Sequence record: OQ973471.1
Length of the DNA stretch: 64,000 bases
Reading direction: 5' to 3' (one strand)
From: Escherichia phage AV101
Positions 45,941 through 57,133 of the stretch are shown here, in pieces. Numbering within the stretch: position 1 is the stretch's first letter; every line of letters starts with the position of its first letter. The position numbers and the translations under genes are program-made. The notes under the pieces were generated by a model. It made no database searches, was not told the DNA's origin, and saw only the letters and a list, made by a program, of their open reading frames with translations.

Positions 45941-46469
45941 TATACAACCAACCGAGGAATAGAAAGAAATAAGCCCGAAGGGGCTTTGATTATCTTTCTG
46001 TGGTGGCCTCAGCAGAAGCCGTACATCAATTATTTGCCATCGTTCAGGTCTCCCAGGTACACTCGGACGCCGTTGATACCTGACGCCGAAGAAATCAGAA
46101 TTTTCAGAGTACTATCGACGTACACCGCCCAACTGGATGTTACCAGACAACGCATAAGTTGGCATATTGACCTCAACGTTCTTTAGTCTATTGCCTATGT
46201 CATTGTTTGAATCTAGGAGTTCTACCAGAGTCTCTTCCATTTTCTCCCTTTCCCTCGATTCACGGGTTTTGGTTTTCGAAAATGTTTCTCAGTCTCTCTT
46301 CGAGTCTGGCTAGAGTTACGTTATCTGGTTCATTTCCCATAGGGATTTTCTCAGGTTAGTTAAGTCGGAATTGACTGAAACAGTCTACCTAATGACTTGT
46401 TTGTGGTACAACAAAACCCCCTCCCCTCATGGGCTTCGAAGATTAAATACTTTTTCTAATGATAAAAAT

Positions 46470-46496
46470 AACCCCGCCGAAGCGGGGTTTTTGTTA
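46470..46496 (-). terminator. rho-independent terminator (UUCG tetraloop)
   Basis: AACCCCGC-CGAA-GCGGGGTTTTT. Confidence 0.6.
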
Positions 46497-46497
46497 G

Positions 46498-48699
46498 TTA
46501 CTGGATAACAATACTACACTCCATATCTGAAACAACACCCGCATTGCTGTATGTTGTAATAGTCCATGATGTTGTTGATGTTTTATTAACAACAACATAC
46601 CGTCCAGTACCAGGTGAAGAAAAAGTGTAGCCCGCGCGTGACATATCAGTAGGGAAGTTGATGACCCAAATACCAACGGATGATTTAGTCGCGGTACAAC
46701 CAGCAGCAAGAGCAAGCGCACCAGAAGAGTTGATATTAACTACGCACGGTGAACTTACCAGCTTAACCACACCAGAGTCGAGAGTATATGTATCGTAAAC
46801 TGTGCCGATGCGGTTCATCCCAAGATATGTCACCGCAGAAGAAGCCAATCCCGCCCGGTTACGTAGCACGACAGACACCCCAAGACCTGAGCAGTTAGTA
46901 ACTTGCTGGTCAGAAACCATACCGGAAGTGGAACTGTATTGTTCAAGAACTGCGTCAACCGTGTTTGATCCGTTGTAGCAATTGAACGTTACATTTTCCA
47001 ATCTGTTTCTGCGCACGCTTTTCCCAAAATCAGACCTAACATTACATATACGGTTATATTGCCCAGGGGTATTAATGGTGACCATACCTCCACTGATAAC
47101 GTTATCTAAGCAGTCTGTTAAAGAAATTTGATGGTCAAAAAATCCATATGCGCTCTTGAAGTCGCCGTTGTTCTGCATGAATATCTGAACGTTTTCGATT
47201 CGGTTATTGCTGCACCCCTGTAAAGCCACCACGTGGTCGTTACCGTTAAATGCTCCATTGGAAATACTGGTAAACTTACCGCCGATGATTTTGCAGTTGG
47301 TGCAGCCTCTAGAGAATTTAATATTATTATTACCGCCTACGGCGCCATCAACACTCCCCAAAACGGATGAATTCATAACGCCCTCACAATCTATGAATTT
47401 AAAATCCGTGGTCGGGAACCCAGTGCCATCTGCGGATGTAGCATGGTAGTTTATTAGTAGCCCGTTTTCTGCGTACCCTTCAGATACATATCCACCTTTA
47501 ACACCTAGAACCTCCATATTCCCCCCGGCTTTAGGCTGCCCAATGAAGCGAGGAAATGTAATCTCGGGATATAGTGCACCAATTAATACAAAATTACCGT
47601 GGTTTGGACCCTTGAATCCTGTGTTATCAAATGTGCAACTATTGGATCTTACACCTACTCGACGAGAAGAATCTGATGCGCCATAGGCTGTATTACCCAT
47701 ACGTAGAGGGGTTACTTCTGTGGATAGCGTGGTAAAGTAAATACCAGAGACTTCGGTATAATTTCCTGTTAACTCCACTGCACCTTTTGTTTGGTCGAAA
47801 GATGACCCGACCAATGTTATTATACCACCGCGACCTATCAATCTACGGTTATCAAGATCACTGATAACATTACTTGATAAAGTCACATTAATGTCAATAT
47901 AAACTGTTTTATAGTGAGTAATCAGTACATATAGCAAAGAGCTTACATCGTCACCCTCAGCAGCCCATGCTGATATAAAAGTATCAACGTCATCCTCTAT
48001 TTTTTCAAGGTAAACAATTGTAGAGTCAATTGTCATGGTTTGATCACTTATTGACCCTATAACTCCAGATACTTCTGGCTTAATTCTGTAGATACCAGAA
48101 TCAGTATTAACAAATGACGTACCAACTGGAACTGTACCTCCAACCTGTGCAACTGATGAGATATCTAATGGGTAAACGTTACCGCCAATAACTTTATTTC
48201 TCATATCATTAACGTCACATCGAAGTGAAGCATCCCCAACACTAATCCACGCTCCTAAACCTTCTCCACCCGTTGACCCTGGAGTTGTGTCAGCAGGAAC
48301 TACTTTAGGCAGTACACCATCCCATCGGTACTTACCATCAGTAAATACAACCAGTTCATTCTTAGTATTAACTGTTACGCCCGTAGAAAATGATCCAGGT
48401 AGGGTTACATACTCTTCGCGGGTAACAGCTAGTGCACCCAAGTCCACATTACCAGCAGAGTGAACTAATACCCCAGTAGGACTAAGGCTTACAGCAGTAA
48501 CCCCTGAACCAATGTCAGCAGGTAGGGAATAAGCCCGTTGTGACACTTTGTCATAGATGACTTTATAACCGCTTAGTACAGCACCCACCGAGAAGTAAAC
48601 AACCTCGGATTGTTTAACCCCAAAGTGTCGGGCCACTGCTTGTTTATTGGTTAAGATTCCGGTTGAACCTTTACCACCTTGTGAGAACATTTCGTTCAT
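46498..48699 (-). CDS. tailspike protein (733 aa) with shared N-terminal module
   Basis: N-terminus (GVKQSEVVYFSVGAVLSGYKVIYDK...GKYRWDG) also found in the 648-aa and 1102-aa proteins; Gly/Asn/Thr/Ser-rich C-terminal body. Confidence 0.8.
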   Translation of the reverse strand: MNEMFSQGGKGSTGILTNKQAVARHFGVKQSEVVYFSVGAVLSGYKVIYDKVSQRAYSLPADIGSGVTAVSLSPTGVLVHSAGNVDLGALAVTREEYVTLPGSFSTGVTVNTKNELVVFTDGKYRWDGVLPKVVPADTTPGSTGGEGLGAWISVGDASLRCDVNDMRNKVIGGNVYPLDISSVAQVGGTVPVGTSFVNTDSGIYRIKPEVSGVIGSISDQTMTIDSTIVYLEKIEDDVDTFISAWAAEGDDVSSLLYVLITHYKTVYIDINVTLSSNVISDLDNRRLIGRGGIITLVGSSFDQTKGAVELTGNYTEVSGIYFTTLSTEVTPLRMGNTAYGASDSSRRVGVRSNSCTFDNTGFKGPNHGNFVLIGALYPEITFPRFIGQPKAGGNMEVLGVKGGYVSEGYAENGLLINYHATSADGTGFPTTDFKFIDCEGVMNSSVLGSVDGAVGGNNNIKFSRGCTNCKIIGGKFTSISNGAFNGNDHVVALQGCSNNRIENVQIFMQNNGDFKSAYGFFDHQISLTDCLDNVISGGMVTINTPGQYNRICNVRSDFGKSVRRNRLENVTFNCYNGSNTVDAVLEQYSSTSGMVSDQQVTNCSGLGVSVVLRNRAGLASSAVTYLGMNRIGTVYDTYTLDSGVVKLVSSPCVVNINSSGALALAAGCTATKSSVGIWVINFPTDMSRAGYTFSSPGTGRYVVVNKTSTTSWTITTYSNAGVVSDMECSIVIQ

Positions 48700-48746: not shown

Positions 48747-51050
48747 TTAATTACTAATCTTACCACGTATGGATAGCTCAAGAGCGCCAGTTGATACACC
48801 TGCTGCGTTAATTTGGGTTCTTGAACCATTTGCCGTTTTATAAAAGAATTCTATAGAGCTGCCGTTCAAAACAGCTATTACCCCAATGTTGCTTTGGTTG
48901 ATGTTCCCAAAGCAGGAATTCTGGCTTGGTTCTGATGTAGGCCCAAAATAGCACTTAAGTCCACGAGGCAGAGTAACGGATAACGAACCCGAAGGGCTGG
49001 AAATTGCCGTCACATTAATAAGTAAAGAAATGTCTATGTGTTCACCGTCTCTGCGTAAACTATATGTGCCGGAAGAAGTTATTCCTACGCCATTGAATGA
49101 TATGCTTCCTGTAAGATTGCTTAAATTACCAGCGATATACTCAGGGAGCCTAACAAGGTTAGTAAACAATGTATCTTGATGACCAGAGTCGTATGATGCT
49201 CTTTCAACAATTAACTTAGATGGATTTATTACATCTGCAATTTCAATCTCATTTCTGGCAGACTCTCCTTTAAAATACACCAAAGCCATGTTTGTGTTTA
49301 CGTCTTCCGGATGGATCAACGCATTCCCCGCTATTATCTTATTACGCCAACCCTCTATGTAAAACCCTACACCACCGTTTGATCTACTTGAGCCAAGTGA
49401 ACTGTTAATTTTTGTCACAGTGTCTGCGTAAGGTCTAATGAAAGTTGAAGCGCTACCAGAAATGAGAAACGGTATTTTACACTGCATATTAGGGTATTTT
49501 TGGGATGAATCGGTTGAAGTTACAGGATAACCCCACGGGTGAGGGTTGATAAAAACTGTACCACTACCTTTTACATCGTGAATTCCGATACCGTAAGCGA
49601 CGGTTACTACATCTTTGAACGTTGAATCGGTTACATTAGAACGGAAACCGATCTTCTCTGAATCCTCCCATGCGTGAATCCATGATAAACATTTGTCGAT
49701 TACTATTTCGTAACCTTTCCCAGAAACCCCTCCAACGTCAACCCCACCGTTAAGAAAGCCGAAAGTTTGTAGATTGCGTATATACACATTAGCTATGTCG
49801 GTAATTACTACTCCTTTCGAAGCAATATGCTGGTCAGTGTAGCCGGAAGGCTCTCTGTTCGCGGTGTATGTTAAGGTTAGTCCCGTAACAGAGGCAGACT
49901 TAGCATTATTAAACACTCCATTTTCTGTAGTAATAATATAAGCAGCGTTCTCTGTGTTACTTTGCGCAGTGGTAAAAGTGTAATTCCCGGAAGGGGAAGC
50001 TATGATTCTACCTGTGCATAAAACATTCAAACCATCATAGTGTATGACACTTGAAGATATATTGTAGTCATTGGCAAGCAACACGCTCTTATTATTTGAA
50101 CGAGCATATGCGTATGCCTCATTTATCATAACGGCCCAGTCAGTTTCCCCTGGATGATTTTCATAGAACTGTTCTGGAGTTACGAATCGGAAAGAGTCTT
50201 TTAACTTAACAAGAGATTCTTCAACAGTGTCACCGGAGCTAGTATGAATCATACTTGACCCAGTATTGGCAGCAAGTTCACTCTTCAACTTGGCAGCCGA
50301 ATCAGGCACTTCAACTAGAGGGACTGTAATAGGACCAGGATTATAGGTTAACTGCCCATTGGATACGGAGCCAATATAGACATTGGACGGTAACGACGGC
50401 AAGCCATAAGACTTCTGTTCATTAACAGAGTAAACAACCTTCTTACCATTGAGGGACTGAGTAGTATCAGTGCTGAGAATTACTTCAGAGTCTTTTACAT
50501 TAGCTGCACGAGCGATTTCTTGAATACTTCGGTCAAACAACGGACTGATATTCGGTTGTTTAACAGACATTTCAGCGACTACCCAAACGCCTGCAGTCAG
50601 CGCGGTTTGTAAAGACACTTTCCCTGTCGTGCTGTTATAGGAATATTCAATTTCGGGTGTTTTGTACTCACCACCGATATAAAGAGATTGGACTCCATAA
50701 GATGTGTAATCAGGAGTGAACTCGGTTTCACCTCCTATAGCCTGGAACTTATAGATTCGAATCCCGGTTTTATAATCTTCTGGAGACAGAATCTTATCAA
50801 ACAGACAGAACACAACATCACCTTTGGACAATGCGCGTCCGAGATTCAACGTATTTCCATCGATTTCAAAGTTGTCTAACGGAACTTGCATACCACCGTT
50901 GATTGTGACTATACCAGTGACAGGGTAGAAAGGGAGGGAGATAAACTTCTCTCCGCCCGTTGCTGTGTAAGTGTATGGAATCTGGTGCGGAGCTGTTACG
51001 ACCGCTCCAAAGATGCTCTCGACGTTTCTGGTCATTTGAAGATACCCCAT
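48747..51050 (-). CDS. tailspike protein (767 aa)
   Basis: Contains the VKDSEV linker-type segment shared with the 1102-aa protein; beta-rich body. Confidence 0.75.
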   Translation of the reverse strand: MGYLQMTRNVESIFGAVVTAPHQIPYTYTATGGEKFISLPFYPVTGIVTINGGMQVPLDNFEIDGNTLNLGRALSKGDVVFCLFDKILSPEDYKTGIRIYKFQAIGGETEFTPDYTSYGVQSLYIGGEYKTPEIEYSYNSTTGKVSLQTALTAGVWVVAEMSVKQPNISPLFDRSIQEIARAANVKDSEVILSTDTTQSLNGKKVVYSVNEQKSYGLPSLPSNVYIGSVSNGQLTYNPGPITVPLVEVPDSAAKLKSELAANTGSSMIHTSSGDTVEESLVKLKDSFRFVTPEQFYENHPGETDWAVMINEAYAYARSNNKSVLLANDYNISSSVIHYDGLNVLCTGRIIASPSGNYTFTTAQSNTENAAYIITTENGVFNNAKSASVTGLTLTYTANREPSGYTDQHIASKGVVITDIANVYIRNLQTFGFLNGGVDVGGVSGKGYEIVIDKCLSWIHAWEDSEKIGFRSNVTDSTFKDVVTVAYGIGIHDVKGSGTVFINPHPWGYPVTSTDSSQKYPNMQCKIPFLISGSASTFIRPYADTVTKINSSLGSSRSNGGVGFYIEGWRNKIIAGNALIHPEDVNTNMALVYFKGESARNEIEIADVINPSKLIVERASYDSGHQDTLFTNLVRLPEYIAGNLSNLTGSISFNGVGITSSGTYSLRRDGEHIDISLLINVTAISSPSGSLSVTLPRGLKCYFGPTSEPSQNSCFGNINQSNIGVIAVLNGSSIEFFYKTANGSRTQINAAGVSTGALELSIRGKISN

Positions 51051-51140
51051 AGAGGATTTGCCAATATGGGGTATTTAGTCTGAACTAATAAATTTATGAA
51101 CAAAGGTATAACAAGAACCGCCGAAGAGGGGGTTTGATTT
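51036..51140. repeat. about 100-bp duplicated upstream cassette, copy A
   Basis: Near-identical to 53518-53632; includes CTAAATACCCC (as GGGGTATTTAG), an ATACCCCAT/ATGGGGTAT inverted repeat and a terminator hairpin. Confidence 0.7.
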
Positions 51141-51330
51141 TACTCTCCAAAATCACGATCCTGTCTTCCCTTGCCTGATTATCAAACAGAGTCTTCAATC
51201 GTTCCTCCAGTCTGAATAGGAACAGTTCACCTGATTCATTCATAATATTACCGTAATTGTACCCCAATGAGGCCGTATCATAGGATGGCTCTTAGATAAT
51301 GCTTAGTATGATGGGATACATCCATACATA

Positions 51331-51546
51331 GTGTCTGGCACTATATCTATAGCAGGAACTCTTAGCTATAGCATATACCTTACACATCAGACGGTAATGT
51401 TCTCCGTTGTTAATATATTTTCAGCCATTTCAACTAAAGAAATGATGACAACATATGCATTACTTACAACCGCATTAATTTCGGCTGTGATAACAATGAT
51501 CGTATCGATACTTCTGTACAACAAAGTTGAGAAAAAGTTCATATAA
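51331..51546 (+). pseudogene. C-terminal remnant of an acyltransferase-3 family (O-acetyltransferase-like) membrane protein
   Basis: LSYSIYLTHQTVMF resembles the AT3-family SYSIYLWH motif, followed by a hydrophobic helix; AT-rich; no ATG start (GTG in frame); plus strand within the minus-strand tailspike cluster. Confidence 0.4.
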
Positions 51547-51551
51547 TAACA

Positions 51552-51575
51552 AGGCCCATTATCGGGCCTTTTGTT
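51552..51575 (+). terminator. rho-independent terminator
   Basis: GGCCC-ATTATC-GGGCC followed by TTTTGTTTAT. Confidence 0.5.
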
Positions 51576-53521
51576 TATAGCTGGCAAGTAAAGCTCAAGT
51601 CTATTGATGCATGACCTGTTATCAGATCTGTTATCTGAACATCTTCAGGAGATCCACTTCTGAAGATCTTTCTAAAAAATATTTTACCTCCAGTAATATA
51701 CCCAATAACTTCAATTAGGTTGGTGTCAGCGCGTATAGTATTATTCAATATTGTGAATATTGAGCCAGTGCAATCACCCTTGAATGAGCTTAGGTAAGGG
51801 GGAAGAGATATTGAAAACGCACCGGATCCAACGTTGCTTGTTATGTTGCATTCAATAGTTAACCTTCCTGATACGCTGCGCTGAGTCAATTCATGCCTAT
51901 ATACTTGTGAAGTATATGCGCAAGGTGCGTTTATGGTTGGGTTGAATCCAGTGGACTGAGGGAAAACGTAGAAGCTTTGTAAGTTACCACCAGATACAGT
52001 ATTATTGATTGGCGTTGCTGAACCAGAAAACACATACACACCACCATCTTCGATACCTGAAACATCAGAACTAACAGGTTCTCTAATGCTATTATCCGTT
52101 CCACTAATGTAGAATACCTTCCCATACTTAGGACCATCATTTTCATGAAAAAGGACTCTTGGGCACACCAAGTTGTTATTGAAACCAGATATTACATATC
52201 CGATCCCACCATTAGCTATACTTGCTGGCTGTGTTTTGTCAAGCTTATGTGGCGTGTCAGAATAATAATTAATAACGTTATTTGAACTACCACCAAGCTT
52301 TAAACCAATTAACATCACGCGTGTTGTTCTAATTCCATCTAACCCCCAGACGTGTGTGTTAACTATGTCATTTGCTCCGCTTGTAACTTCCATGCCGACA
52401 GGATATCCAACTACCGTTGTATTGATATACATACTATCAGAAGTACGGTGTAATATCCCACTAACGCCAGATGTTCCAAGCTGGTCTTCCGGTGCTACAA
52501 CTACTGTATTATTGAATTTCCACTCATAACCCTTTTCAATATTAATACCTCCATTTAGCATATTGAAAATTCTTGCGTTATTTATCACTGGTCCAACACC
52601 ATCAGTACCATAGATTCCAACAGCCGATATTGACGATTCTGGCTCAATATAAAGATTGTCAATAAGGACTCTATTTCCTGTTTGTATAGCTGTTATACCA
52701 TCATTATAAGGTGATCTCCATTTATCATCTTTTACTTCTATAACAACTGTATCAGTAAAATTCTTGGGTACGATAGACCCTATATTATGCATTCTTGCTC
52801 CACTATTTAAAACAAGACGCGATGTTATGCATGTTTTACCAATAAACAATACGGTTCTTTTATTTGTTGCTGACCAATCTAAAGCTTGCTGATTAGGAAT
52901 GGTATCATCATCAATACCATTACATTTAGCGCCAAATGATCGGTTTGTAATGCAATCAGTCAATACATCTTCAACAATTCTTGTTGAAAAACCTGTTGGC
53001 CCAAATCCTATTAATCCTGCCCCTGTTGGCTTAGCGAGGTCAGATCTTAGCGCCGCATCACCAACACTAACCCACGCACCAACAGCAATACCTCCAGCAG
53101 TTTCAGGGGTTGAACCAGCTGGCACTACTTTGGGAAGCTCCCCATCCCAGCGATACTTCCCCGTTGTATAGGTAAGTAATTCATTTTTAACATTAAGGGT
53201 AGCACCTGTATCGAAAGATCCTGGTAAGGTTACGTATTCTTCGCGGCTTACTGCTAATTCCCCAAGATCAACAGAACCCGCTGAATGAGTGAGGATAGCT
53301 CTTTTATCCAGACTTATCGCAGTCGTTCCTGAAACAATACCTGAAGGAAGAGAATAAGCCCGTTGGGTAGACTCATTATAAATTACTTTAAATCCACTGA
53401 GATCAATACCAGCAGTGAAATAAATGACTTCGTCTTCTTTGACACCGAAATTTCGAGCGATAGATTGTTTGTTAACTTCTATAGAAGTGGAGCCGCGTGG
53501 TTGATTGAATTGAGAAATCAT
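51575..53521 (-). CDS. tailspike protein (648 aa) with shared N-terminal module
   Basis: N-terminus MISQFNQPRGSTSIEVNKQSIARNFGVKEDEVIYF... parallels the 733-aa protein. Confidence 0.8.
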   Translation of the reverse strand: MISQFNQPRGSTSIEVNKQSIARNFGVKEDEVIYFTAGIDLSGFKVIYNESTQRAYSLPSGIVSGTTAISLDKRAILTHSAGSVDLGELAVSREEYVTLPGSFDTGATLNVKNELLTYTTGKYRWDGELPKVVPAGSTPETAGGIAVGAWVSVGDAALRSDLAKPTGAGLIGFGPTGFSTRIVEDVLTDCITNRSFGAKCNGIDDDTIPNQQALDWSATNKRTVLFIGKTCITSRLVLNSGARMHNIGSIVPKNFTDTVVIEVKDDKWRSPYNDGITAIQTGNRVLIDNLYIEPESSISAVGIYGTDGVGPVINNARIFNMLNGGINIEKGYEWKFNNTVVVAPEDQLGTSGVSGILHRTSDSMYINTTVVGYPVGMEVTSGANDIVNTHVWGLDGIRTTRVMLIGLKLGGSSNNVINYYSDTPHKLDKTQPASIANGGIGYVISGFNNNLVCPRVLFHENDGPKYGKVFYISGTDNSIREPVSSDVSGIEDGGVYVFSGSATPINNTVSGGNLQSFYVFPQSTGFNPTINAPCAYTSQVYRHELTQRSVSGRLTIECNITSNVGSGAFSISLPPYLSSFKGDCTGSIFTILNNTIRADTNLIEVIGYITGGKIFFRKIFRSGSPEDVQITDLITGHASIDLSFTCQL

Positions 53522-53632
53522 GATAATACCCCATAAAGGATGACCAATATGGGGTATTTAGTCTGAACTAATCAAATTTATGAACAAAGGTATAATAAGA
53601 ACCCCGCCAAAGCGGGGTTTGACACTCCTATT
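53518..53632. repeat. about 100-bp duplicated upstream cassette, copy B
   Basis: See copy A. Confidence 0.7.
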
Positions 53633-53799
53633 CCAGACACATTTCAAAATATATACCAACATCACCCCACCCATCATAAACAGACGACCCCGATATTCTT
53701 GATATCATCTATGACAACCTGAGAGAGCCAACAGCATTATCAATTAGGGTAATGCAAACAGTAAACTCTATATAAAAAGTATTATTAATAAGTAAAACT

Positions 53800-53822
53800 A
53801 ACCCCGCCGAAGCGGGGTTTTT
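53800..53822 (-). terminator. rho-independent terminator (UUCG tetraloop)
   Basis: AACCCCGC-CGAA-GCGGGGTTTTT immediately downstream of the 1102-aa gene. Confidence 0.6.
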
Positions 53823-53824
53823 AC

Positions 53825-56800
53825 TTATATTACTGACGTCACAGTTCCAGATATAGACGCTTTTACACTTGAAGTTGGATTTGGTCTAACTTGAACAGTA
53901 CCCCTGTTACCAGATGCTCCGATAAACACATCATATCCGGTTGAAGCATTAAAGTCAGAGAACAGACTTACAGGAGCATTATTTTGCGCAACTAGTGTAG
54001 CTGATGATGTCCCATATCGCTTCAATATACCAGGTGTAGTAGCAGAAGAATTACCATCCCTTCTGCATACAATATCCAAGTCAAACGTGTAACCATCAAA
54101 CCCGTACTGTGCAGTATCCTGGAAGAACTTCATTACTTCAGTGGTTGAGCCCCCAGCCGGAGCAACATGGTTGAAACCGGAGAAGGTCATACGAGTAAAT
54201 CGGTTATCTTGTACAACAGTATCAAATGTCTTTTCAATCTTAAGACTACTAAGCCCATATACACCGTTTAAGATAATGGGGTTTTGTACTCGGGCGTTCA
54301 TGCGAATATCTAGCGCAGGGGCACTGTATAAATCTATACGTTCGCCCACAGCCCCAGAACGATCGGTAATGTTAACAGCAATAGAAAAAGTGGTATCGTT
54401 TCCTTCAATTTTGATGGAAGAGCGTTTATCCGCATTAATTGAAATGGCAGGGGATGTCTCAGCTGTTGACATTCCAATAATCGTTAACGCTCGCACATAC
54501 TTAGTGATATATATCTTTGCTTCTTCACTATAGTTACCTGCCAAATATGTTGCCTGGCTGTCACCAATTCTTACCTCACCTGTTTCAATTGTACTTGAAA
54601 TTACTGACGTACCAATAATGGGAACTTCAACCTTAGTCCCAGATTGAAACTCAGAAGTCATTGCACGGTCAAGTGTCAACACATTCCCAGAGATTGCTGT
54701 TATACGCCGTGTTTCTACACCTCCAGTAGAATTAGTGAAAGCAATCTCAAACCAAGTATCGAATCCAGCTGCGTCAGCAACAGTAACAGTAGTATCCCCA
54801 ATATTTGCTGCTGAGCTAAGTGTCGTACTCATTCCTTCAATAGAAACCGTACACTGTCCCGTACTACCACCAATATAGCCCATCAACTTTATCGAGTTAT
54901 TTCGGACGCGAACACCATACTTAGTTCTGGTGGAGCCATTTGTTGTTCCTTGCGAATGACCATGCCAATTAATAACCAGATGTAAAAGATCATAATTACT
55001 GATGCGGTGGTTAATTGATTTATTTCTAATGGTTGTATAGGGCGCTGTGTAAATAGCTCTCCCAGCTGCTGATGATCCTTTTTCCTCTACTCCACCATTA
55101 ACCGTGAAACCCTCAATGGTTTGATGCCAGTGTAGTCGATCTCGATTCCTATCTCGTGGGTCAATACCAACGTGGTGTAGCGAAATATCTGAATCTGCTG
55201 ACATAAGAATAGTTGCGTCATTGCCAGCACCAGAGAAGGTGAACCCACGACGGTCAACATCAAGAGTCACTTGGTTGGTACTAAAAGTACCAGATGGAAA
55301 ACTGAGCTTTCTAATAACTGCATTAGCTCGTGCTACACGGTTAGCCTCATCTATAGCAGCAGAGTTAGCAACAGGGTCAGTTCCACCAAAACCAAACTCT
55401 TCATAACCCATATTACGGTGTAATATTAGGTTAGCAAATAAACCATTTGCAAGGGTTATAGCATATGTGCTGCTATCTTTCGTAGCACTGACTCGCCATT
55501 TCGATATTGTTTTAATACCATATTCGTTAGCTGCTGTTTCAACTAGCATTCCCTCTACTAATGGAATATTCTCACCCGATGGTAGGGTTCCTGTCACAAG
55601 TTCGCTAACCGTTTTAAAATTAATTGTAATATTCTTATTCACCCATTTCTTAATGGAGTGGACACCTACACTAATCCATAAACCACTACCAATACCTCCA
55701 GTTGTTGCTGGAGTAGAGTCAGCGGGGACTTCTTTAGGCAATGCACCATCCCAACGGTATTTACCATCTGTAAAGACAACTAACTCATTCTTGGTATTAA
55801 CAGTTACACCTGTATCGAATGAACCAGGTAAGGTCACGTACTCCTCACGAGATACAGCTAATGCGCCCAGATCAACACTACCAGCAGAATGCACAAGTAC
55901 AGCCGAAGAACTAAGGCTGACTGCCGTGGTTCCAGTCGGTAGCTCTGGAATAAAATATGATCTCTGTGTTACTTTATCATAGATAACTTTATACCCACTT
56001 AACACAGCACCAACACTAAAATAAACGACCTCTGTATCTTTAACATTGGTTACACGAGCCACTTCCCGCAAAGTATAATCAATTTGATTATAGATGTTTG
56101 GTGTTCCATTGATAATTACAACAACTTCATCCTCTGGTTCCAGTTCTTGCGCAAGAGTGATTTTACTGGTTAATGGATCGAATGTGAACCCCAGATTTTT
56201 ATACTGGCGACTTCCGTTTATATCAATGGCCGGAACATCATCAACAACGACGTCCAACGTGATTTCGGTTTCACCACCAATCGCTGAACCCCCATTATAG
56301 ACCCAGGTAATCGTAGAAGAACCAGAACCACCGCCAGTGCCCAACTGAACCGGAGTATATTCTATTACCTGCAATTCAGTGCTGGCGGGCAAAGAAGGAC
56401 TGAAAGTGATTACATTCCCATCTAGTGAATATTTGGATTCCACAAGACGTTTTCCGTCAGCATATACGTCCACGATTATTGGTGGAGTATTGAGAGCGAC
56501 AGAACTTGTTTCAGACGCCAAAATTTGTGTAAATATTTCACGACTGTAGACACGACCTTGGCCAAGACCGACGCCGGATGTAATAATCCAACCTTGTTCA
56601 GGTCCAGACCAAGTGAACGTTGCTGATACGTTATCAGTTGTTATAGCCATGTCTTCAGTGGAGCCATACAAATTATTTCCAGAAGGAGACACGGTCAATG
56701 GGTAAGTGGCAAATTTCCCATAAGCATCACAAATAGTAACAGAATCCCCAATACGCGTAGGGGAAGGGAGAACCACTGTAGATGCCCCTGTGGTATTATT

Positions 56801-57133
56801 AATGAGATAGCCTCGCCCTTCAGTGAGCGTTGCCGTAGAGGCATGCGGAAGGACTTCCCAGCGGATGCCACCGCCACCCAGCGGCAACCATCCACCATTT
56901 TCATAGAAACCCTCAAATTCGTCGGAGTCGGCATTGTAGCGAACGGAAGACGGGAGTCCTGCGCTGGCATTACCCTCGGGTAAAGTCAGGACAGCATCTG
57001 GTCCATGCTCAATCGTACCCGTGTTGAGGACACCAGCCAAAGTAGACTGCTCTTCAGCCGCCAGACCGAGAGGGAAAACAGGCTGTGTTGGTTTATTAGC
57101 CATTTCAAATACCCCTAAATGTGTTCGTTTCAT
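53825..57133 (-). CDS. tailspike protein (about 1100 aa) with extended N-terminal region and internal shared module
   Basis: Internal VKDTEVVYFSVGAVLSGYKVIYDK...GKYRWDG module; true start may be MANKPTQ at 57103. Confidence 0.8.
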   Translation of the reverse strand: MKRTHLGVFEMANKPTQPVFPLGLAAEEQSTLAGVLNTGTIEHGPDAVLTLPEGNASAGLPSSVRYNADSDEFEGFYENGGWLPLGGGGIRWEVLPHASTATLTEGRGYLINNTTGASTVVLPSPTRIGDSVTICDAYGKFATYPLTVSPSGNNLYGSTEDMAITTDNVSATFTWSGPEQGWIITSGVGLGQGRVYSREIFTQILASETSSVALNTPPIIVDVYADGKRLVESKYSLDGNVITFSPSLPASTELQVIEYTPVQLGTGGGSGSSTITWVYNGGSAIGGETEITLDVVVDDVPAIDINGSRQYKNLGFTFDPLTSKITLAQELEPEDEVVVIINGTPNIYNQIDYTLREVARVTNVKDTEVVYFSVGAVLSGYKVIYDKVTQRSYFIPELPTGTTAVSLSSSAVLVHSAGSVDLGALAVSREEYVTLPGSFDTGVTVNTKNELVVFTDGKYRWDGALPKEVPADSTPATTGGIGSGLWISVGVHSIKKWVNKNITINFKTVSELVTGTLPSGENIPLVEGMLVETAANEYGIKTISKWRVSATKDSSTYAITLANGLFANLILHRNMGYEEFGFGGTDPVANSAAIDEANRVARANAVIRKLSFPSGTFSTNQVTLDVDRRGFTFSGAGNDATILMSADSDISLHHVGIDPRDRNRDRLHWHQTIEGFTVNGGVEEKGSSAAGRAIYTAPYTTIRNKSINHRISNYDLLHLVINWHGHSQGTTNGSTRTKYGVRVRNNSIKLMGYIGGSTGQCTVSIEGMSTTLSSAANIGDTTVTVADAAGFDTWFEIAFTNSTGGVETRRITAISGNVLTLDRAMTSEFQSGTKVEVPIIGTSVISSTIETGEVRIGDSQATYLAGNYSEEAKIYITKYVRALTIIGMSTAETSPAISINADKRSSIKIEGNDTTFSIAVNITDRSGAVGERIDLYSAPALDIRMNARVQNPIILNGVYGLSSLKIEKTFDTVVQDNRFTRMTFSGFNHVAPAGGSTTEVMKFFQDTAQYGFDGYTFDLDIVCRRDGNSSATTPGILKRYGTSSATLVAQNNAPVSLFSDFNASTGYDVFIGASGNRGTVQVRPNPTSSVKASISGTVTSVI

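Follow-up and report, generated by a model that had tools for sequence, protein, structure and literature searches.

The tailspike (TSP) cluster of Escherichia phage AV101 raises the question of how the end of an O-acyltransferase gene came to lie, in opposite orientation, between two tailspike genes of an Ackermannviridae phage, and whether it still does anything there. The stretch of DNA that was analysed (64,000 nt of record OQ973471.1, hereafter the window) carries this cluster as four large ORFs, all on the minus strand. According to the ORF list these are a TSP ORF of 1102 aa (53825-57133), a TSP3-like ORF of 648 aa (51575-53521), a TSP2-like ORF of 767 aa (48747-51050) and a TSP1-like ORF of 733 aa (46498-48699). 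Only patchy similarity was found between the cluster and those of Kuttervirus and other Ackermannviridae, the closest record being Escherichia phage A221 (Ackermannviridae, Aglimvirinae) with 95.5% identity over 38% of the cluster. The 767-aa and 648-aa tailspike genes are separated by a spacer of 524 nt, and the AT3-like segment is situated inside this spacer. A first-pass annotation of the DNA had described an AT-rich plus-strand segment between two minus-strand tailspike genes. This description was borne out, as the GC content was 0.345-0.355 over 51300-51700 versus roughly 0.40-0.47 in the flanking tailspike-gene sequence. In the direction of tailspike transcription the spacer consists of the TSP3 stop codon, an apparently imported terminator, the inverted AT3 tail, a G7C-type relic, native spacer and the TSP2 start.

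On the plus strand a reading frame is open from 51307 over 79 codons, with a GTG at 51331 as its first possible start and the stop at 51544-51546. The ORF beginning at this GTG (51331-51546, 71 aa; product MSGTISIAGTLSYSIYLTHQ...KVEKKFI) encodes LSYSIYLTHQ (51361-51390) followed by a helix of hydrophobic residues (about 51448-51519). By blastn, Pfam and PHROG comparison, the plus-strand region 51341-51546 was identified as the 3' fragment of an AT3 (Acyl_transf_3) O-acyltransferase gene, comprising its last 68 codons and the stop. The Pfam profile Acyl_transf_3 (PF01757) was matched at positions 272-325 of 326 with E=7.3e-4; the score of 19.1 bits falls short of the gathering score of 31 bits, as is expected for a fragment. 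The PHROG family phrog_3333 'O-acetyltransferase' was matched with E=3.8e-8. Chance similarity to AT3 was rejected because the nucleotide identity to an intact gene is 99.6%, and the AT3-like C-terminus proposed earlier from the LSYSIYLTHQ sequence and the helix was thereby confirmed. Instead of about ten transmembrane helices, a Kyte-Doolittle scan revealed one clear hydrophobic segment, at donor residues 337-355, within the retained residues 297-364. The fragment descends from an AT3 gene without being a complete member of the family itself.

The source of the fragment was sought by blastn in 5,426 complete E. coli genomes, and two chromosomes were found, TST3 and TBE6, in which 51341-51580 is 99.6% identical over 240 nt (E=7e-117). 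In TST3 (locus L001, 6001-6240) 239 of the 240 nt match, the only mismatch being at 51391. The similarity to AT3 genes on which the earlier proposal had been made to depend is therefore present, as a match to the 3' end of an intact AT3 gene. The matching DNA spans the ends of two genes, annotated as 'acyltransferase family protein' and 'phage head-binding domain-containing protein'. The TST3 locus contains, in this order, an integrase remnant, the AT3 gene (364 aa, plus strand), a gap of 28 nt, the tailspike gene (604 aa, minus strand), Arc and the ejection proteins, and belongs to a P22-like prophage. Its AT3 gene is complete (PF01757, E=2e-30, 106 bits, positions 2-325), and a P22 head-binding domain was recognized in its tailspike (E=2e-55; Pfam positions 1-113). 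A PDB sequence search with the intact AT3 protein yielded no solved relative. When the same protein was compared by tblastn with 50,697 phage records, homologues were found only in six Sf6/Sf101 records; it is 32% identical to Sf101 OacB (E=4e-11) and 28% identical to Sf6 Oac (E=2e-5). Because these closest phage relatives are OacB and Oac and occupy the same int-tailspike locus, the parent AT3 gene appears to be of the serotype-conversion kind.

An intact AT3 gene convergent with a tailspike gene was observed in four more loci (L008, L009 and the prophage type of L010-L012). Two of the loci with this pairing are metagenomic contigs, whose AT3 is 97% identical to the donor AT3. In L010-L012, which are E. 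coli prophage contigs, the AT3 protein is 66% identical to that of the donor and its gene is convergent with that of a 703-aa spike, residues 216-703 of which are 87% identical to residues 161-648 of the phage TSP3. This spike has a third type of adaptor, starting with MTVSTEVDHNDYIGNG, and the prophage possesses two holins, a GH19 endolysin and DUF2514; to judge from the spike N-terminus, this prophage type may be Uetakevirus-like. With just 78% identity in nucleotides, it is not the direct donor. Across prophage types, AT3 and the receptor-binding domain (RBD) seem to move together as a pair.

The similarity to TST3 is not confined to the AT3 gene. The alignment of AV101 with this prophage is free of gaps over 51341-52936, and nothing aligns beyond about 52950. 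In bins of 60 nt the identity is 98-100% from 51341 to about 52540 and then about 70%; within 51341-52540 there are 19 differences in 1,200 nt (about 98% identity), one of them in the AT3 part. Leftward, the identity falls abruptly to background at 51340/51341. Because the near-identity continues unbroken into the tailspike gene, the fragment probably arrived as the 3' flank of an imported RBD. One imported block would then comprise the AT3 fragment, the terminator and the last ~320 codons of the TSP3-like gene (51575-52540, minus strand, part of the RBD and about 98% identical to the P22-like prophage tailspike). A serotype-conversion module picked up beside the receptor-binding genes, as had been suggested, is thus correct as to the kind of gene, a relative of OacB and Oac from a corresponding locus. 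The contiguity of the fragment with the ~1.2-kb block speaks against its separate acquisition.

The N-proximal part of the RBD (52541-53050, minus strand) is about 70% identical to TST3, and 52600-53000 is 95-98% identical to phage EcoIv28_Lewi, so that the imported RBD is itself a mosaic. Short Lewi-like patches were also noticed at 51512-51600 and 51800-52000. A donor near-identical across the whole RBD was not present in the collections searched. As 52600-53000 is closer to Lewi than to TST3, either the true donor has not been sampled or the domain was built by more than one exchange. The remainder of the gene (53052-53521, minus strand) encodes the N-terminal anchor and Tail_spike_N module of a TSP3 and is native to the Ackermannviridae; its nucleotide identity to Kuttervirus TSP3 genes is about 87%, a level that is kept over 53052-53600. 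The 648-aa protein matched the structure of CBA120 TSP3 (5w6f, also 6nw9) over residues 1-213 with E=1.4e-86 and Pfam Tail_spike_N (Pfam 90-155; PF18668, E=4e-24), and so combines the CBA120-like anchor and the Tail_spike_N module of a TSP3-type tailspike. Its residues 158-648 align with residues 114-604 of the prophage tailspike at 87.6% identity, that is, with everything after the head-binding domain (Pfam 1-113). Since the alignment covers exactly this part, the event would have been a domain swap at the anchor/RBD boundary. TSP3 residues 5-163 are also homologous to the N-terminal module of G7C gp63.1 (PDB 4qnl, E=3.7e-53). This homology could provide the upstream arm for exchange of whole cassettes between Ackermannviridae and Gamaleyavirus.

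On the other side of the breakpoint the AT3 fragment borders on DNA of a different source. The minus-strand region 51153-51338 is a Gamaleyavirus (G7C-like) flank relic with 82-86% identity to ECBP1, St11Ph5 and other Gamaleyavirus. It is composed of the spacer upstream of gp63 (51244-51338) and the first 27 codons of gp63, which start on the minus strand with an ATG at 51243 (MNESGELFLFRLEERLKTLFDNQARED); the homology ends near 51153, and the translated piece matches gp63 and positions 2-29 of phrog_5211. In Gamaleyavirus the DNA matching 51153-51338 follows the tailspike gene gp63.1. The part 51153-51265 is 94% identical to Phapecoctavirus vB_Ec-G1, where it is likewise located after a tail-protein gene. 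The relic interval given earlier as 51141-51575 has therefore to be narrowed: 51341-51546 is AT3-derived and 51141-51340 is unrelated to AT3, 51153-51338 being of Gamaleyavirus type. The G7C-type homology ends at 51338. This is also where the sequences of ECBP1 and St11Ph5 part, so 51338-51341 is a recurrent cassette boundary. The idea that the cassette-specific flank of ECBP1, including the small convergent ORF ECBP1_0071, is likewise a prophage relic found no support, as this flank had no match in the 5,426 E. coli genomes. The coincidence at the junction hints that a G7C-like genome may have been the place where the AT3 and RBD cassette was first put together, in which case its path did not lead straight from the prophage to the Ackermannviridae. 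Either the slot received foreign cassettes at least twice, or one cassette had already passed through a G7C-like genome.

Beyond this relic the native inter-TSP spacer of the Ackermannviridae was recognized upstream of the TSP2-like gene (51051-51143, minus strand; 88-94% identity to many Kuttervirus and other Ackermannviridae phages). A spacer module, consisting of a hairpin (AACCCCGCC.AAGCGGGGTT) and ~55 nt, is conserved before both TSP2 (51061-51135) and TSP3 (53544-53619) and corresponds to repeat families D2 and D4. The spacer hairpins near 46470, 53600 and 53800 are intact, with folding energies of -15 to -19 kcal/mol, versus -5.1 kcal/mol for the degenerate hairpin at about 51116-51135 beside the relics.

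Other spacers of the cluster contain comparable material. The TSP4/TSP3 spacer is at 53730-53805 88-94% identical to DNA near the 3' end of a gp63.1-type RBP gene in several Gamaleyavirus, including pSb-1 and ECBP1, and also to several Ackermannviridae, and is another tailspike 3' flank common to the two groups. Downstream of the TSP1-like gene, after the last tailspike gene, a broken gp63-like (phrog_5211-type) gene was found at 46112-46339 on the minus strand. It reads 'MGNEPDNVTLARLEERLRNIFENQNP*' and continues as 'MEETLVELLDSNNDIGNRLKNVE...' in another frame, and its similarity to Gamaleyavirus gp63 ends before the C-terminal membrane helix; a frameshift may have turned it into a pseudogene, the sequence may contain an error, or the short form may be native. 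In A221 (L013) the region 3082-3243 matches AV101 46264-46425 at 91%; it is an Ackermannviridae-type gp63-like 5' piece in the spacer upstream of the TSP2 orthologue, at the same site that holds the G7C-type gp63 5' relic in AV101. Fragments of the gp63 5' end seem to recur as markers of where tailspike cassettes end downstream.

Recurrence of this sort raises the thought that the flank relics are not inert and act as downstream homology arms, or landing pads, for repeated capture of RBDs from prophages or co-infecting phages. The AT3 3' end with its terminator is conserved at 78-100% nucleotide identity among the modules examined (TST3, L008/L009 and L010-L012), and Gamaleyavirus, Phapecoctavirus and Ackermannviridae all have the gp63-type 5' end after tailspike genes. 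We consider such a role doubtful; if it were real, the tailspike cluster would be a cassette-exchange site with defined arms.

Our preferred reading, to which we assign a probability of roughly 0.85, is that the AT3 segment is a non-functional recombination scar that hitch-hiked with an RBD of P22-like prophage origin. In an ancestor of this phage, a virulent member of the Ackermannviridae, the RBD of TSP3 would have been exchanged for a copy of that of a P22-like (Lederbergvirus-type) prophage, most likely during infection of a lysogen. In that prophage the tailspike gene stands tail-to-tail with an O-antigen acyltransferase gene, one terminator serving both. A downstream crossover inside the acyltransferase gene would have given the phage the tailspike C-terminus, the terminator and the last 68 AT3 codons, and the upstream crossover presumably took place at or near the anchor/RBD boundary. 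A longer AT3 piece may have been transferred first and have lost a part by later deletion.

It was also considered whether the lineage once had a complete, working serotype-conversion acyltransferase beside its tailspikes that has since degenerated in place. A gene of the serotype-conversion type is indeed the source of the fragment, and a larger initial transfer followed by deletion stays compatible with the single genome. The state of the remaining sequence argues otherwise. The fragment corresponds to codons 297-364 and the stop of the intact 364-aa prophage gene (WP_071788685.1). The 296 codons before these are missing from the phage, with a sharp cut at 51340/51341 where a clean break leads onto the unrelated G7C-like DNA. 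In the 206 nt that are left, the one substitution (at 51391) causes one amino-acid change, and neither a frameshift nor a stop is present. As one base in 206 differs and the frame is open, the fragment has been truncated rather than eroded, and the term 'decayed' used for it in the first-pass annotation does not apply. Intact homologues at the same site in relatives, which that annotation had proposed to look for, were not encountered: tblastn with the fragment against the 50,697 phage records gave no Ackermannviridae match, and, as described above, the homologues of intact AT3 in these records belong to Sf6/Sf101. Moreover, O-antigen conversion benefits lysogens and the Ackermannviridae are virulent, which also counts against degeneration of a resident gene. 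Such a history is improbable.

With truncation as part of the preferred reading, the remaining piece is expected to be without function. Three motifs are essential or conserved in AT3 acetyltransferases, namely R/K-X10-H in TMH1, FFXISG in TMH2, and RXXR (PMC7448272). The intact prophage protein carries R45-X10-H56, FFCITG at 90-95 and R115-IRR118; all three motifs are absent from the phage fragment, which starts at donor residue 297. The AT3 homology begins at 51341, so that the GTG at 51331 sits in non-AT3 sequence, and there is no ATG at the 5' end. No Shine-Dalgarno-like sequence was detected upstream of GTG 51331 or ATG 51442, in agreement with the earlier remark that a proper start is lacking, and a consensus scan found no promoter-like site on the plus strand. 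Judged by consensus scan, the fragment thus does not have the start, ribosome-binding site and promoter of an expressible gene. Because promoter, ribosome-binding site, start codon and catalytic residues are missing and the fragment is antisense to late transcription, it should be silent and do nothing as a gene.

The terminator is a different matter. An intrinsic, bidirectional terminator was located at 51551-51570 by terminator call and folding, which supports the claim that the segment is followed by a terminator of its own. Its hairpin folds at -14.8 and -14.6 kcal/mol on the two strands (about -14.7 kcal/mol; z -2.9 and -3.2) and, as predicted from sequence, it has the GC-rich stem and following T-run of a Rho-independent terminator. 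The T-tract overlaps the TSP3 stop codon (51575-51577). The TST3 prophage has exactly this terminator, and L008, L011 and Lewi conserve it; it is common to the AT3 gene and the tailspike gene and would have come in as part of the prophage block. In AV101 the imported hairpin probably serves now to end transcription of TSP3. Such a takeover, which we offer as speculation, fits its position right after the TSP3 stop and the degenerate state of the native copy. An Rfam scan of 50950-51700 matched no family; STnc350 RNA, the best candidate, lay at the terminator and was rejected (E=0.41, 20 bits versus a cutoff of 60 bits).

The open frame of 79 codons with its strong hydrophobic helix, the antisense orientation to late genes and the good terminator at the end could also be taken as signs that the 71-codon ORF or its RNA is functional, as a two-helix membrane mini-protein or as an antisense RNA that modulates tailspike expression. 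The want of a plus-strand promoter-like site and of a ribosome-binding site before either start codon, together with the Rfam result, speaks against this. The near-identity to the donor explains the open frame, and has left no time for selection to show. Nor was the ORF found elsewhere. Neither the 71-aa ORF nor the 648-aa tailspike was on record in a contig collection when looked up by exact sequence. An exact scan of viral contigs with a 37-mer across the junction gave no match, nor did one of viral, metagenome and GTDB genome contigs with an internal AT3 34-mer, and these exact-pattern scans disclosed no second carrier of the AT3 relic. By tblastn, the 79-aa extended frame obtained a single chance-level match (E=2) in the 50,697 phage records, to a Tunturiibacter phage O-acetyltransferase. 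A function of the ORF or its RNA is very improbable.

A chimera assembled from phage reads and host-prophage reads would also place prophage DNA in the phage record. Prophage DNA of E. coli chromosomes matches the block at about 98%, and host DNA can be present in phage preparations. An artefact of this kind would hardly leave the 648-aa ORF intact across the junctions, nor would it be likely to place the change of source, at residue 158, directly behind Tail_spike_N (Pfam 90-155) and, in the prophage protein, directly behind the head-binding domain (Pfam 1-113). It also accords poorly with the 19 differences from TST3, with the Lewi-type sequence further in, and with a left junction that meets a third source, the G7C-like DNA, instead of the phage backbone. 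We regard it as extremely improbable. A reverse transfer, in which the virulent phage supplied the tailspike C-terminus of the prophage, is equally hard to credit: sequence identity alone is silent on direction, but the AT3 gene is complete on the prophage side only, a 206-nt fragment cannot yield a gene of 1,095 nt, and the convergent AT3-tailspike pair recurs in diverged form (66-97% aa identity) in several prophage types and is thus old there. Transfer from prophage to virulent phage is favoured because the AT3-tailspike arrangement is ancestral or recurrent on the temperate side and AT3 is truncated only in the phage.

That Ackermannviridae tailspikes exchange RBDs with unrelated phages or prophages is usually deduced only from similar protein sequences. 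A flank fragment and terminator preserved at near-identity supply physical evidence of the kind of donor, the direction of transfer and the approximate positions of the crossovers. The donor indicated here is a temperate P22-like prophage in which the tailspike and a cognate O-antigen acyltransferase form a pair. Spacers within the cluster are also seen to gather flanks from one donor after another. A systematic search for such scars could help to trace the evolution of host range, and could guide the choice of natural junctions for engineered chimeric tailspikes.

Among known systems the donor locus most resembles Sf6 (oac) and Sf101 (oacB). In both, as in the donor prophage, the AT3 gene is convergent with the tailspike gene across a gap of ~30 nt that contains a terminator, and an integrase gene is present on the other side of AT3; this Lederbergvirus-type locus, with AT3 and tailspike sharing a terminator next to int, was found in all three. 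Like Oac and OacB, the donor AT3 is an AT3-only protein of about 360 aa, homologous to both yet distant from either. AV101, in contrast, is a virulent myovirus that keeps only the last 68 codons, without function. Of the whole locus it retains only the junction of AT3 3' end, terminator and tailspike 3' end, and it has no integrase. The prophage of L010-L012 differs from AV101 and the donor in its N-terminal adaptor and its backbone (holins, GH19 endolysin). With the gp63.1-gp63 region of Gamaleyavirus, AV101 shares at 51153-51338 the stretch that follows gp63.1 and extends into the beginning of gp63; unlike there, only 27 gp63 codons remain and the site has no gp63.1-type RBD.

It is established that Ackermannviridae TSPs exchange RBDs with P22-like and other phages, and links to prophages have been described in silico (PMC8432352, PMC11414711). 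The words 'remnant' and 'intergenic' are absent from these two papers and from PMC10408124. Det7 TSP3 shares its RBD with the P22 tailspike, as PMC8432352 states in citing Walter et al. 2008. AV101 resembles Det7 in that an Ackermannviridae TSP3 slot is occupied by the RBD of a P22-like tailspike joined after the anchor domains; unlike Det7, it also took the donor's downstream gene fragment and terminator, at about 98-100% nucleotide identity. An independent recipient, the 48-kb phage EcoIv28_Lewi, has an RBD in common with AV101 (86% nt identity) and keeps the terminator plus 11 codons from the end of AT3 (98.9% identity); its breakpoint corresponds to 51512. This shorter piece with a different breakpoint suggests that hitch-hiking of the AT3 flank happened more than once, and it supports transfer from the prophage type. 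The relic in AV101 is a fresh instance of a known process, phage mosaicism, with an unusually clear footprint.
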